DNA of 41,316 nt. Source: Clostridia bacterium. GTDB taxonomy: Bacteria; Bacillota; Clostridia; Christensenellales; CAG-1252. The translations under genes were made by a program, and so were the position numbers. Each line of letters starts with the position of its first letter. Positions within the stretch are counted from its first letter, which is position 1. The DNA is taken from the NCBI GenBank assembly GCA_017463565.1, contig JAFTOZ010000064.1, positions 1 to 41,316 on the forward strand, read 5' to 3'. The notes below the pieces were generated by a model. That model ran no database searches, had not been told where the DNA came from, and saw nothing but the letters and a program-made list of their open reading frames with translations. Positions 22,477 to 26,171 of this stretch are shown one piece after another.

Positions 22477-23289
22477 TTATTTATCGAGGGAAAATACAGG
22501 CAGAACGGCACCGCTATAGGTTTCTACAATATAATCGTAGACGGCCTTGCTTTGCAGGACGGATACGAGAGCCTGGATCTTGGGATCGTTCTCGTGGCCT
22601 TTTTTGACTGCAATCAGGTTGGCGTAGGTTTGTGCACTATCACTGTCTGCGCTTTCGCGTGCGATAGATTCATCGAGGTTCAAGCCTGCCTCCAGGGCGT
22701 AGTTGCCGTTGATGACCGCCAACACACCGCCTTGCTTGTAGGTGGCTGCCAACATATCTGCTGCCATCAAGGTGATTTCGTTGCCGTTATCTTCGGCGAT
22801 ATCGTACTCGGTCAGACTATCGTTTGCGGTGGGGTTGCCTTTCAGCGTGATATAGCCTTCCGATGCCAACAACAGCAGCGCACGAGTCAGGTTGCTATCG
22901 TCCGAAGGAACGATGATGGTGTGGCCCGATTTGCCCTCTGCGGTGCCAAACAAGCTCATAGGCTCGTAGTGGATCTTAGCAACCGACACAAGCTGCGTGC
23001 CGTTCTTGCTGTTGAAGGAATTCAGATAGGGCTCGTGTTGGAAGTAGTTTGCGCTCAAACTGCCGTCCTCAAGGCTCACGTTGGGCAACACGTAGTCGTC
23101 GTATACGCGGATTTCCAAGGTATATCCCAACTTTGCCAACTCACCCTTGACTTGCTCCAAAATCTCTGCGTGGGGCACCGCGGTGGCGCCGATCACGATC
23201 GTGTACTCATCAATTTCTTGGCAACCGACTGCGCCGACAACCAGCGTCAACAGCACCAAAACAACCAACAAAGCAATCCATTTTTTCAT
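22477..23289 (-). CDS. metQ: Methionine ABC transporter substrate-binding lipoprotein (MetQ/NlpA)
   Basis: IGATAVPHAEIL, DYVLPN, ANYFQHEPYL and AVINGNYAL motifs. Lipobox AVGC. Confidence 0.92.
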   Translation of the reverse strand: MKKWIALLVVLVLLTLVVGAVGCQEIDEYTIVIGATAVPHAEILEQVKGELAKLGYTLEIRVYDDYVLPNVSLEDGSLSANYFQHEPYLNSFNSKNGTQLVSVAKIHYEPMSLFGTAEGKSGHTIIVPSDDSNLTRALLLLASEGYITLKGNPTANDSLTEYDIAEDNGNEITLMAADMLAATYKQGGVLAVINGNYALEAGLNLDESIARESADSDSAQTYANLIAVKKGHENDPKIQALVSVLQSKAVYDYIVETYSGAVLPVFSLDK

Positions 23290-24020
23290 AGTGTATTCTC
23301 CTTTTTGTTCTTTTTCTTTTTACCGATATGATGAATGCGTTTATCCGTGCGTTTTGCAATCAGCATTCCCAATTCTTGAATAACCTGCACGATCACCATA
23401 GAGAGCGCAAGCGCTACCCACATAACGTCTTTGTTTTGACGTTGGTGGCCGTTGATGATGGCAATTTTGCCCAAGCCACCGCCGCCGATGGTAGACGCCA
23501 TTGCCGAATAACCCAACACCGTCACCGCCGAAATCACCAGACCCACCAACAAGGCAGGCTTAGCCTCGGGCAACAGTACCTTGAAGATGATTTGGCTATT
23601 GCTTGCGCCAAGCGCACGTGCCGCCTCAATCACCCCTTTATTGACTTCCTTCAAAGAGGACTCGACCATACGTGCCACGTAGGGTGCCGCTGCAATGGTG
23701 AGCATAACGATCATCGGACCGTTGCCTACCGACTTGCCAAGAAGGAAGTTTGCCACGGGCAGTAGCGTTACCATAAGGATCACAAAGGGAATGGATCTCA
23801 GGATATTGACTACGATACCCAGCGTTTTGTTTACAACCAAGTTTTTGCAAAGACCGTTTTTGTCCGTCACCGTGAGAATCACACCCAAGGGGAGACCAAT
23901 CACGTATGCAAGCGCCAGAGAGAGCACCGTCATATAGACGGTTTCCCATATGGCCATCCACAGATCGCCGGAGGAGGACAGGTTTTGCAATTCTTTCGAT
24001 ACCAACAGTAAGTTTTCCAT
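23286..24020 (-). CDS. metI: Methionine ABC transporter permease
   Basis: VNILRSIPFVILM, EAARALGAS (EAA loop) and YSAMASTIGGGGLG motifs. Confidence 0.92.
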   Translation of the reverse strand: MENLLLVSKELQNLSSSGDLWMAIWETVYMTVLSLALAYVIGLPLGVILTVTDKNGLCKNLVVNKTLGIVVNILRSIPFVILMVTLLPVANFLLGKSVGNGPMIVMLTIAAAPYVARMVESSLKEVNKGVIEAARALGASNSQIIFKVLLPEAKPALLVGLVISAVTVLGYSAMASTIGGGGLGKIAIINGHQRQNKDVMWVALALSMVIVQVIQELGMLIAKRTDKRIHHIGKKKKNKKENTL

Positions 24021-25012
24021 TATGCCCCCTTACGCACGTACGCAACGTGCTCCTCGTCCAAGTGGGCGCACACCTCTCGAATGGCGTCCTCGTTATCCTC
24101 TACCTCAATGACCATATGTCCGTACATTTTGCCGTCGATATCCTTCATGTCGGCGAATACGATACTGACGGGTGTTTTGATCTTCAAGATCAACTGGGAC
24201 ACAACGGGCATGAACGTCTTTTCGCCGTTGAACAACAGGCGCAAGCGCACGCGTCCTTCTACGGGATTTTCTCTTGCTTTTTCGGGCAGGATCAAGCTCT
24301 TTGCAATGCCCGAGGTGGGGTTGCAGAAGATCTCTGCCATTTCGCCTGCCTCTGCGATACGTGCGTGATCCAATACCGCCACCTTGTTGCAGATACTCTC
24401 TACCACCTTCATTTCGTGGGTGATAATCACGACGGTAACGCCCATGGTCTGGTTGATTTCCTTCAACAATTCCAGGATAGAAACGGTGGTACTTGGGTCG
24501 AGTGCACTGGTGGCCTCGTCACACAACAAATAACTGGGATTTGTGGCCAAAGCGCGTGCAATCGCGACTCTTTGTTGTTGTCCTCCCGACAGTTCGCTGG
24601 GGTAGGCGTTCTCTTTGTCTGCCAGTCCGACCGTCTTCAAAAGGGCGCGCGCACGTTCCACCCGCTCCTTTTTGCCTACCTTTGCCAACTCCAAGGGGAA
24701 GCAAACGTTGCCCAAAGCGGTGCGTTGCTCCAACAGGTTAAAGTGTTGGAAAATCATGCCGATACGGCTACGCATAGCGCGCACCTCTTTCATACTGATT
24801 TGGGTCAGGTCCTTTCCGTCCACGATCACGCTACCGTGAGTGGGGCGCTCCAACATATTGATACAGCGAATCAGGGTGCTTTTGCCTGCGCCCGACAAAC
24901 CGATGATGCCGTAGATATCGCCGTCCTCAATAGTCAAGCTCACCGAATCGAGTACGGTGATGGGTCCTTCCTTTGTGGGGAACTGTTTGGTTAGGTTTTG
25001 AATTTCAATCAT
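24020..25012 (-). CDS. metN: Methionine ABC transporter ATP-binding protein
   Basis: GLSGAGKST, LSGGQQQRVAIARAL, CDEATSALDP and a C-terminal NIL-like domain. Confidence 0.95.
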   Translation of the reverse strand: MIEIQNLTKQFPTKEGPITVLDSVSLTIEDGDIYGIIGLSGAGKSTLIRCINMLERPTHGSVIVDGKDLTQISMKEVRAMRSRIGMIFQHFNLLEQRTALGNVCFPLELAKVGKKERVERARALLKTVGLADKENAYPSELSGGQQQRVAIARALATNPSYLLCDEATSALDPSTTVSILELLKEINQTMGVTVVIITHEMKVVESICNKVAVLDHARIAEAGEMAEIFCNPTSGIAKSLILPEKARENPVEGRVRLRLLFNGEKTFMPVVSQLILKIKTPVSIVFADMKDIDGKMYGHMVIEVEDNEDAIREVCAHLDEEHVAYVRKGA

Positions 25013-25024
25013 ACGTCCTCATAG

Positions 25025-25054
25025 AAAACCCGAAGTCAACGTTGGCTTCGGGTC
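25025..25054 (-). terminator. Attenuator terminator 2 in the metN leader
   Basis: Minus strand GACCCGAAG-ccaacgttga-CTTCGGGTTTTCT, just upstream of the metN SD. Confidence 0.7.
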
Positions 25055-25066
25055 ATAGTTCATAAT

Positions 25067-25096
25067 AAAACCCGAAAGGCGATTGCTTTTCGGGTC
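25067..25096 (-). terminator. Attenuator terminator 1 in the metN leader
   Basis: Minus strand GACCCGAAAAGC-aatc-GCCTTTCGGGTTTTATT. Confidence 0.7.
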
Positions 25097-25138
25097 ATAT
25101 TTGCTGCTCTGGATTTTCTCACACCAAAACGCACGCAA

Positions 25139-25186
25139 CTATGACCTTGCGTGGTGCATTCGCATGATGAGAGTACTCCATTTCAT
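25139..25186 (-). CDS. Putative leader peptide of the met transporter operon, MKWSTLIMRMHHARS
   Basis: GAGG SD 6 nt before the ATG. 15 codons including three Met. Lies between a promoter and tandem terminators. Too short for the ORF track. Confidence 0.65.
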   Translation of the reverse strand: MKWSTLIMRMHHARS

Positions 25187-25213
25187 AGCAAACCTCGTAT
25201 CTTTGATAATCCC

Positions 25214-25243
25214 ATTATGCCATAGCGCAAAATGCCGTGTCAA
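25214..25243 (-). promoter_or_regulatory. Sigma-A promoter of the met leader/operon
   Basis: TTGACA-N18-CATAAT with extended TG. Confidence 0.7.
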
Positions 25244-25277
25244 ACGATTATCGAGTTTTTTCGATAAGTTTAGCAAA

Positions 25278-26171
25278 TTAAGCGAAAAGCCAGGCGCACA
25301 AATCCTCTAGCGCAGTCTGCGCCTCGGGCAATTGGTCGAAATAGATGGGGTAGTCGTGGAAGAGCCCCTCTCCAATGACCAAGGTCACGTCCTTGTGGAG
25401 TTCCTCCATCTTTTGGGCAAGTCGCGTACTGTCGGACAACAGTATCTCGTGCGAAGCCACCGACACGTAGGTAGGAGGAAGGATAGAGAGATCTCCCCAA
25501 AGGGGCGAGATTTCGCCCGAGCTGGGATCTCCCTCGCCTGCCACGGCAAACACGTTGGTAGCACGTGCGGCATCGGGAATGTCCAATCCGTTGAGGGGGT
25601 GTCTTCCCAAAACCACGTCCAGGTAGAAATTATCGTAGTAGGATTCGCCCGATGCGGTCAAATCCGTCCAAGGGCTCACGAGAGCCAATTTGTGGGGCAT
25701 AGGGTGGCCTTCTTTTGCCAACGTCTGCGCCAATTGCAGGGACAGGTGTCCACCGGACGAGTCTCCCACTAGGCGGACGGGACCCTCTTGCGCCAAGCGC
25801 AAATACAAACCCTTCACCTCGTTCAAAGCGGTGGGATATACCGAAGGCAACAGGGCATAGTCGGGCAGAGCCACCGTTGCGTGGCACAGCTTTGCTACCT
25901 GCTCCGCCACCCGACGGTAACGGTCGTTGACACCCGTATGGTAGCCGCCTCCGTGCAAAAACAACACCGTGCCGCGACTTTCCTCCACCAGTGGCGAAAA
26001 GAACTCCACCGGCAGACCGTCCAGGCAAACCGTGCGATAGCGCACCCCCTTGGGGGTGTAGGCCTGAGCCCGATCACTCGAGGCAGCCAGTCTGTCCAAC
26101 CAGCCCTGCCACGAGTCGGCACGCTTTCTTGCGGCCAGTCTTTTGATAGTACGCTTGGCCGCGCCCGTCAT
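25278..26171 (-). CDS. Alpha/beta hydrolase, HSL/acetyl-esterase family
   Basis: LFLHGGGY, VGDSSGG nucleophile elbow and GLFHDY. Confidence 0.9.
   Translation of the reverse strand: MTGAAKRTIKRLAARKRADSWQGWLDRLAASSDRAQAYTPKGVRYRTVCLDGLPVEFFSPLVEESRGTVLFLHGGGYHTGVNDRYRRVAEQVAKLCHATVALPDYALLPSVYPTALNEVKGLYLRLAQEGPVRLVGDSSGGHLSLQLAQTLAKEGHPMPHKLALVSPWTDLTASGESYYDNFYLDVVLGRHPLNGLDIPDAARATNVFAVAGEGDPSSGEISPLWGDLSILPPTYVSVASHEILLSDSTRLAQKMEELHKDVTLVIGEGLFHDYPIYFDQLPEAQTALEDLCAWLFA

Follow-up and report, generated by a model that had tools for sequence, protein, structure and literature searches.

Leader-peptide attenuation is textbook knowledge for tryptophan, histidine, leucine, threonine, isoleucine/valine and phenylalanine, and the classical trp leader works with two regulatory codons. 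For methionine, control by a leader peptide is hardly documented, and in Gram-positive bacteria the methionine regulons are mostly attributed to S-adenosylmethionine (SAM) riboswitches, methionine T-boxes or protein regulators. Here we describe the leader of the methionine importer operon metNIQ within a DNA stretch of 41,316 nucleotides (hereafter the window) from a Clostridia bacterium of the order Christensenellales (contig JAFTOZ010000064.1). On computational and mainly comparative grounds, this leader is probably a ribosome-mediated transcription attenuator, which senses charged elongator Met-tRNA and controls metNIQ. Most likely, it lets this gut bacterium switch on the importer when methionine runs short.

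The classical attenuators (trpL, hisL, leuL, thrL, ilvL and pheL) share three features with the window leader: a short open reading frame (ORF) led by a Shine-Dalgarno (SD) sequence and carrying the regulatory codons; the alternative pairings 1:2 (sequestor or pause), 2:3 (antiterminator) and 3:4 (terminator); and a stop codon placed such that a finishing ribosome covers segment 2. In contrast to these systems of Proteobacteria, the window leader uses AUG, precedes an importer operon instead of a biosynthetic one, belongs to a gut Firmicute, and has tandem look-alike terminators that would share a single antiterminator strand; it is not known to resemble these systems in sequence. As judged from sequence features, the leader would thus fall in the classical class, and what appears new is the methionine specificity, the host group and the two-terminator arrangement.

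Ribosome-mediated attenuation is also described for Gram-positive bacteria, in which T-box or riboswitch control is more common. In bacilli, a His leader is reported upstream of the hisS/hisZ paralogues (PMC2965389), and ilvBNC of Staphylococcus aureus is reported to have an attenuator peptide rich in Leu (PMC5794164); likened to the window leader by description, both concern another amino acid and other genes. A methionine attenuator, 'metL', was proposed from one transcriptome upstream of metNIQ of Streptomyces lividans TK24 (PMC8079986). As given in the accessible part of that report, it is, like the window uORF (upstream ORF), a short ORF with Met codons (together with Cys and Arg codons) near its end, ...CMCRRMCAF, directly before metNIQ. 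Unlike the window leader, it belongs to an actinobacterium, its transcript is leaderless, a typical Rho-independent terminator is missing according to the authors, and in that text it stands as a single-genome annotation without comparative or experimental support. The mycobacterial cys operons have poly-Cys leader ORFs (10.1101/834739; PMC1262725), also short ORFs rich in a sulphur amino acid that act as cis sensors, and many Clostridia leaders carry Cys codons. In the portion of PMC1262725 available, no terminator hairpin was found for these cys operons, whereas intrinsic terminators are the rule in the Clostridia leaders, and the same 2005 survey of Actinobacteria gives, in that portion, no RNA element for methionine operons. 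Within the full-text literature, no Met leader peptide was found besides the S. lividans annotation; subscription journals and supplements lay beyond reach, and an earlier description is possible. A leader family of sizeable extent thus appears to be undescribed so far.

The elements of the window leader, all read on the minus strand from 25243 to 25013, upstream of the metN ATG at 25012, are as follows.

25214..25243, minus strand: sigma-70-type promoter, with TTGACA (25243-25238), 18 nt and CATAAT (25219-25214), TG before the -10 box, 11/12 hexamer matches.
25193..25196, minus strand: Shine-Dalgarno sequence GAGG for the uORF, whose ATG at 25186 follows after 6 nt.
25139..25186, minus strand: leader uORF, translation MKWSTLIMRMHHARS, 15 codons, with the TAG stop at 25141-25139.
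25157..25165, minus strand: proposed sensor codons Met8-Arg9(CGA)-Met10, ATGCGAATG, with Met8 at 25165-25163 and Met10 at 25159-25157.
25132..25153, minus strand: hairpin 1 (regions 1:2), CACGCAA, loop GGTCATAG, TTGCGTG, 7 bp, then CGTTTTGG.
25135..25146, minus strand: region 2, the putative antiterminator strand GGTCATAGTTGC, complementary to both terminator flanks.
25099..25193, minus strand: long imperfect hairpin P1 of the minimum-energy folds, with the uORF as its 5' strand.
25060..25104, minus strand: terminator 1 (T1), hairpin 25099-25067, with the 5' flank GCAAATATGACC (region 3) and a U-tract.
25020..25060, minus strand: terminator 2 (T2), hairpin 25057-25025, with the 5' flank AACTATGACC and a U-tract.

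A preceding sequence-only reading had named the promoter, the GAGG, a uORF with Met at positions 1, 8 and 10, a hairpin with a loop containing the stop codon and two terminators, all of which were found in place. The exact complementarity that it had noted between the uORF end and the 5' side of T2 was confirmed at 10/10 positions (GGTCATAGTT against AACTATGACC), and its GGTCATA/TATGACC match to T1 turned out to be longer than it had claimed (GGTCATAGTTGC against GCAAATATGACC, 11/12).

As in an attenuator, the uORF with its SD and start lies downstream of the promoter; promoter-like sites in the region number 3, against 0.7 expected in shuffles. The stop codon TAG forms the last three loop bases of hairpin 1, a candidate for both a pause hairpin and the sequestor of the antiterminator strand. 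Region 2, consisting of the hairpin 1 loop and the beginning of its 3' arm, extends from +8 to +23 past Met10 and from -10 to +5 around the uORF stop codon. Between the uORF and metN lie two hairpins of intrinsic-terminator type, T1 (-14.8 kcal/mol) and T2 (-16.7 kcal/mol) by our own folds, each followed by UUUU. The 5' flank and arm of T1 recur at T2 as a direct repeat (14 nt at 93%), and the T2 5' arm is complementary to the T1 3' arm (7/7). A consensus terminator scan was limited to loops of up to 8 nt, and T1 and T2 were absent from it because their loops exceed this limit; it listed hairpin 1 plus CGTTTTGG as terminator-like instead. The whole leader is strongly structured, with a fold z-score of -4.4 and none of 200 shuffles equally stable. 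A second GAGG precedes the metN ATG at 25012.

From this arrangement, the following mechanism can be proposed. Transcription would begin at the promoter at 25243-25214, and a ribosome would load on the 15-codon uORF. When methionine is plentiful, the ribosome would reach the UAG stop and, because UAG lies inside region 2 (GGUCAUAGUUGC), cover this region; T1 and T2 would then fold and transcription would end before metN. Without a ribosome, hairpin 1 and P1 should hold region 2, and the terminators should fold too. When charged Met-tRNA is scarce, the ribosome would wait with Met8 or Met10 in the A site, masking CACGCAA and leaving region 2 free. Free region 2 may then pair with GCAAAUAUGACC before the T1 3' arm is made, removing the lower four base pairs of T1. 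After read-through at T1, region 2 could shift to its better match AACUAUGACC at T2, and the polymerase would enter metN. Pairing of GGUCAUAG with both terminator flanks would be the basis of induction; we infer that one antiterminator strand, containing the uORF stop, is handed from T1 to T2.

The antiterminator duplex of the window amounts to -15.0 kcal/mol, a value reached by 3 of 200 shuffles (p = 0.015). Folds were calculated with the ribosome represented as a mask of 28 nt, from -15 to +12 around the A site. For a transcript ending at the T1 loop, the minimum-energy fold with the ribosome at Met10 pairs GGUCAUA with UAUGACC; with no ribosome, or with the ribosome at the stop, there is no antiterminator, and P1 or the ribosome holds region 2. 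Among the constrained folds, only those with the ribosome at Met10 gave the antiterminator. At full length with the ribosome at Met10, T1 is folded, region 2 pairs with the 10-nt T2 flank and T2 is lost. In the antiterminator state at T1, the four lowest T1 pairs are lost, and T1 stands 2 nt farther from the U-tract. By computation, an alternative antiterminator that depends on the ribosome position is present, with a kinetic argument required for T1. A 'domino' scheme, in which the T1 3' arm pairs with the T2 5' arm (7/7), was given by no constrained fold, and the hand-over reading was adopted.

The leader was then compared with those of other genomes. BLAST of the 256-nt leader against 40 relatives returned the window itself as the sole match, while MetN homologues with 49-59% identity were detected in seven relatives. 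Two of the seven, G025 and G039, have a known RNA upstream of metN, a SAM riboswitch and a T-box respectively. The other five are without an Rfam match, and each carries a short ORF with a Met cluster and the ATG-CGA-ATG core of the window, such as MATNSFKMMMRMLQSRANTHGFFALSE. The 9-mer ATGCGAATG is common to the uORFs of G002, G003, G004, G005, G032 and several others. It occurs in 10 copies in the 1.5-Mb genome of the window (11.6 expected), of which only the window copy sits in a leader. The best MetN relative in the genome and metagenome contig searches shows 62% identity across 241 residues, or 58% when the full length is taken.

For an order-wide census, 401 genomes of the order were searched, and 94 gave a MetN-like match at E <= 1e-70. 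The upstream DNA of 75 loci was analysed, with the MetN match covering at least 300 residues; about 20 shorter MetN-like matches, mostly the ATPase domain alone, were dropped before counting. An ORF was counted when it had no more than 60 codons from its first ATG and at least 3 ATG codons within a 10-codon window, and a terminator when a hairpin of -10 kcal/mol or lower with a T-run was located 60-260 nt past the ORF. Such leaders were found at 36/75 loci on the sense strand, at 7/75 on the antisense strand and at 1/75 after dinucleotide-preserving shuffling. When at least 4 ATG codons were required, the respective numbers (of 75) were 25, 3 and 0, and with at least 5 they were 18, 0 and 0. 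Since both controls are much lower, the runs of Met codons are not due to chance. Among the 36, G320b was counted falsely, since it has no SD and a T-box adjoins its metN; the leaders of G003 and G045, recognised by eye, fail the census rule. The Met-rich uORF that the sequence-only reading expected to be conserved is thus present in five of five Rfam-free leaders and in 36/75 loci order-wide, and both the uORF and the switch recur in orthologous leaders. By the family labels of the genome search, the leaders are distributed over at least 13 GTDB families of the order. In metQ-first operons, a Met-rich ORF lies upstream of metQ. The most extreme uORFs contain 13 internal Met codons, for example ...MMMNMMMNMMMPMCMCRMSM...

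The sequence of these uORFs carries signs of translation. In 35/36 leaders, the Met cluster is preceded at a distance of 0-51 nt by an SD with an in-frame start, against 22% at random positions, and the one leader without them carries a T-box instead. AUG triplets within the uORFs lie in frame in 202 cases and out of frame in 8 and 7, an excess that follows in part from the selection of ORFs; the spacing between AUGs is irregular, being always a multiple of three. Met makes up 19.7% of uORF residues across the family and is enriched in every member, and Cys makes up 6.8%. Apart from the Met codons, the peptides share little across subfamilies; because the sequence beyond the Met codons and the switch helices is not conserved across subfamilies, no common aptamer-like core is visible. 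The Arg between two Met residues is encoded by CGA in 13/19 M-R-M cases (18 leaders), as compared with 11/114 Arg codons in six window genes. Common descent may explain this preference, or a slowly decoded codon may have been selected for within the sensor.

The pairing of the segment after the Met codons with the terminator 5' arm was compared with 200 shuffles for each of the 36 leaders. The antiterminator duplex beats the shuffles at p <= 0.05 in 11/36 leaders and at p <= 0.01 in 8/36. Ten leaders of one subfamily, 'MMRMxxSRAxxRG' (SRA), were aligned. Their segment A, UCCCGRGC, corresponding to the S-R-A codons, begins 8-9 nt past the last Met codon; the terminator 5' arm C is its complement. 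A:C is paired in 79/80 cells, with 2 pairs changed on both sides and a covariation score reached by 1 of 500 shuffles, and when the partner is slid along, at most 60% of cells pair. For the terminator helix C:D, the paired fraction of cells is 90%. At column 134, in C, two sequences show U->C alongside A->G in both the A and the D partners, a triple change expected if C alternates between A and D. In a second subfamily, a GCUUUCC/GGGAAGC pairing is located at the uORF stop codon. Stem covariation, one of the expectations of the sequence-only reading, was thus observed for the A:C helix of ten relatives. The relative G260 also has two sequence-related tandem terminators.

The SRA A:B hairpin was considered as a conserved switch element and rejected, with 80% of cells paired, no covariation and one column never paired; followed by a U-rich tract, it is a possible pause or sequestor hairpin. 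A hairpin 4-10 nt past the last Met codon, followed by a U-rich tract, was noted in the window and in G002, G004, G005, G096, G171 and G257. By analogy with the trp 1:2 hairpin, it looks like a pause signal that could synchronise RNA polymerase and ribosome. In G003, G002 and G005 (L005, L006 and L007), a copy of the 5' arm lies farther downstream and offers the terminator 3' arm another pairing partner, and in G003 CCUCC-like stretches precede the weak metN SD; possibly, this downstream pairing adds a translational layer.

The S-box (SAM-I) riboswitches and Met T-boxes occupy the same place as the window leader, the metN 5' leader, and have the same terminator/antiterminator output; they occur at orthologous metN loci of the order, the former in G025 and the latter in G039 and G320. 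The window leader lacks their aptamer or tRNA-binding architecture, belongs to neither class and is unmatched by the Rfam models. The earlier statement that no S-box or T-box motif is present was borne out: the Infernal scans for the SAM and T-box models gave no riboswitch-type match to the leader, and the Rfam scan of the 41-kb window at gathering thresholds gave no match at all. The SAM-I riboswitch model (RF00162) matches neither the window nor anything else in the 1.5-Mb genome, which is 93.5% complete. The T-box model (RF00230) is likewise without a match in the window, and its one genome-wide match, on another contig, scores below the cut-off at 25.9 bits. When 24900-25400 was scanned permissively, there were five weak matches (E 0.88-6.6, far under gathering scores), four eukaryotic RNAs and OxyS, families without bearing here. 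Among the 67 of the 75 census loci covered by the Rfam scan, a relevant match is absent at 64; the exceptions are two T-boxes (G039 and G320) and one SAM riboswitch (G025).

Conservation among strains was assessed from contigs of four gut-metagenome runs of four studies, aligned over 24700-25400, leaving out the likely source run. The 193-nt leader (25015-25207) shows one variant, at 25043 in one run, which turns an A-U into a G-U pair in the T2 upper stem and keeps the pair. Variable positions among strains are the promoter-proximal bases 25208-25211 and base 25014. Over 313 nt of metN, about 3-5 differences per strain were counted, the Walker-motif stretch 24863-24898 being excluded because contigs from other organisms accumulate there. 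By the very few variants in these four runs, the leader is under no less constraint than the metN coding sequence.

Several observations weigh against the proposed attenuator. The window uORF has just 2 internal Met in 14 residues, and passes the census rule only when the start codon is counted. Its stop-codon-loop antiterminator design differs from that of the relatives, and no close relative sharing this design was found among the genomes and metagenome contigs searched, for which reason the window's own helices are without covariation support. Whatever the ribosome state, T1 stays folded in the minimum-energy folds. Once T1 is complete, the T1-intact state (-29.8 kcal/mol) is favoured over the antiterminator state (-28.2 kcal/mol) by 1.6 kcal/mol, and in a shorter construct the T2-blocking state is about iso-energetic (-46.3 versus -46.8 kcal/mol). 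Minimum-energy folding was accordingly rejected as evidence for antitermination at T1, and read-through there needs a kinetic argument. Of the stalling scheme in the sequence-only reading, the part that stands is formation of the antiterminator with the ribosome at Met10 alone; opening of T1 was never seen in the minimum-energy folds. In the SRA subfamily, it is not cleanly derivable how a ribosome at the stop, 30-45 nt beyond A, blocks A:C; A:B may form again, the terminating ribosome may insulate A sterically, or ribosomes trailing behind may do so. At 39/75 orthologous loci, including several families entirely, there is no such uORF, and the small number of variants behind the strain comparison counts on the same side.

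Some of these points would be accounted for if the window element were decayed or simplified, its terminators being constitutive or under another factor, such as a repressor at a palindrome, and its Met codons sensing nothing. The two internal Met codons, a uORF shorter than those of the relatives with a different antiterminator design, the T1 left unopened in minimum-energy folds and the palindrome TTATCGA-N6-TCGATAA beside the -35 box would all agree with this. Such decay is nevertheless unlikely, given that the 10/10 and 11/12 complementarities fall exactly at both terminator 5' flanks (p = 0.015), that the leader is almost invariant in four strains while metN varies, and that two regulatory codons are enough for the trp leader. 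Could the leader instead bind a ligand as a riboswitch, or be recognised by an RNA-binding protein, for instance a reader of AUG repeats like TRAP with GAG/UAG, the ORF being incidental? The AUG-CGA-AUG core is conserved at the nucleotide level, with the CGA bias described above (13/19 versus 11/114), and the leader is strongly structured (z = -4.4). We regard this as decidedly unlikely, since the Rfam models are unmatched, the AUGs hold one frame (202 versus 8 and 7) with spacings in multiples of three, an SD and in-frame start upstream and a stop downstream are present in 35/36, and the subfamilies share no aptamer-like core.

It is highly improbable that the uORF is translated and controls termination while reporting general translation speed or another signal, such as Cys, His or antibiotics. 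Two His codons follow Met10 in the window and Cys contributes 6.8% of the family residues, but Met is the sole residue enriched in every member (19.7%), the element stands upstream of methionine transporter operons, and the window uORF has no Cys codon. Finally, Met/Cys-rich peptides can bind metals, and the ORFs have good SD sites, as would be expected of a functional peptide (metal-binding, or the precursor of a ribosomally synthesised and post-translationally modified peptide) that lies before metN by accident. We give this explanation hardly any credence: length and sequence vary freely besides the Met codons, the conserved SRA residues coincide with the RNA pairing segments, a terminator always lies between the uORF and the transporter genes, and no similar ORF was found among the candidates checked elsewhere in the own genome. 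Attenuation by a ribosome at the Met codons therefore remains the preferred reading. Tentatively, the window leader can further be taken as a member of a large undescribed family of Met (often Met plus Cys) attenuators, which occupies the place of S-box and T-box in at least 13 families, with the hand-over between terminators as a design not described for classical attenuators; this combined reading is plausible, and we do not hold it firmly.

If methionine attenuation is true, gut Clostridia would sense methionine at the ribosome, by the charging of Met-tRNA, and not via SAM, and a regulator would be at hand for many met transporter operons without a recognised one (64/67 scanned loci). A compact and portable methionine-responsive switch would also be added. 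The AUG sensor being also the start codon, the question arises how the switch behaves when initiator and elongator Met-tRNA both fall.

The genes downstream of the leader are as follows.

24020..25012, minus strand: metN, ATP-binding cassette (ABC) ATPase with a C-terminal NIL domain (PF00005, PF09383); best match TIGR02314, 359 bits (strict cut-off 499.7).
23286..24020, minus strand: metI, permease; NF008049, 188 bits (cut-off 212).
22477..23289, minus strand: metQ, substrate-binding lipoprotein of the NlpA family; PF03180, 199 bits.

The order metN-metI-metQ and these matches agree with a MetNIQ importer; the best NCBIfam matches are MetN, MetI and MetQ, every one scoring under the strict cut-off of its model. 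The assembly comprises 1.5 Mb in 126 contigs at 93.5% completeness, and the window also contains a GerA germination gene. A scan of the own genome listed 18 SD-led short ORFs with at least 3 Met in 5 codons; no second Met-rich leader was found among the five of the 18 that were checked, all lying inside longer ORFs and one of them being the C-terminus of a protein.

Cys motifs such as MCM and CCLCC occur in many of the Met-rich leaders, with no Cys codon in the window uORF; the frequency of Cys codons may indicate joint sensing of Met and Cys. The metQ-first loci of genus g7 (L116, L117, L119, L132 and others) have neither a Met-rich uORF nor an Rfam match upstream. Outside the order, short ORFs rich in Met and Cys were noted 80-230 nt upstream of metN, followed by terminator-like hairpins. 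These records are one Gemmiger (L017), two Flavobacterium (L050 and L072) and one Chryseobacterium (L074), and thus include Bacteroidota; several metagenome contigs also have a Met/Cys-rich ORF and a terminator upstream of metN. A ZMP/ZTP riboswitch (58.7 bits; L097 1085-1168, minus strand) points away from the G043 metN leader.

Two further features were noted around the start of the leader. The perfect palindrome TTATCGA-N6-TCGATAA, at 25248-25267, is located immediately upstream of the -35 box and may be the operator of a second, protein-based layer of control; in the G004 leader, ATCGA...TCGAT abuts the -35 box, and the other relatives are without such a palindrome. The spacer/SD region of the uORF pairs downstream. 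In the window, the SD-ATG spacer, with UUUGCU (25187-25193), pairs with AGCAGCAAA (25099-25105) to form the base of P1, and in L006, L008, L099 and L134 the corresponding pairing at the uORF spacer/SD is AAGGCAA/UUGCCUU or CGGCAA/UUGCCG, with covariation. Such pairing might restrict initiation on the uORF to the first, co-transcriptional ribosome.

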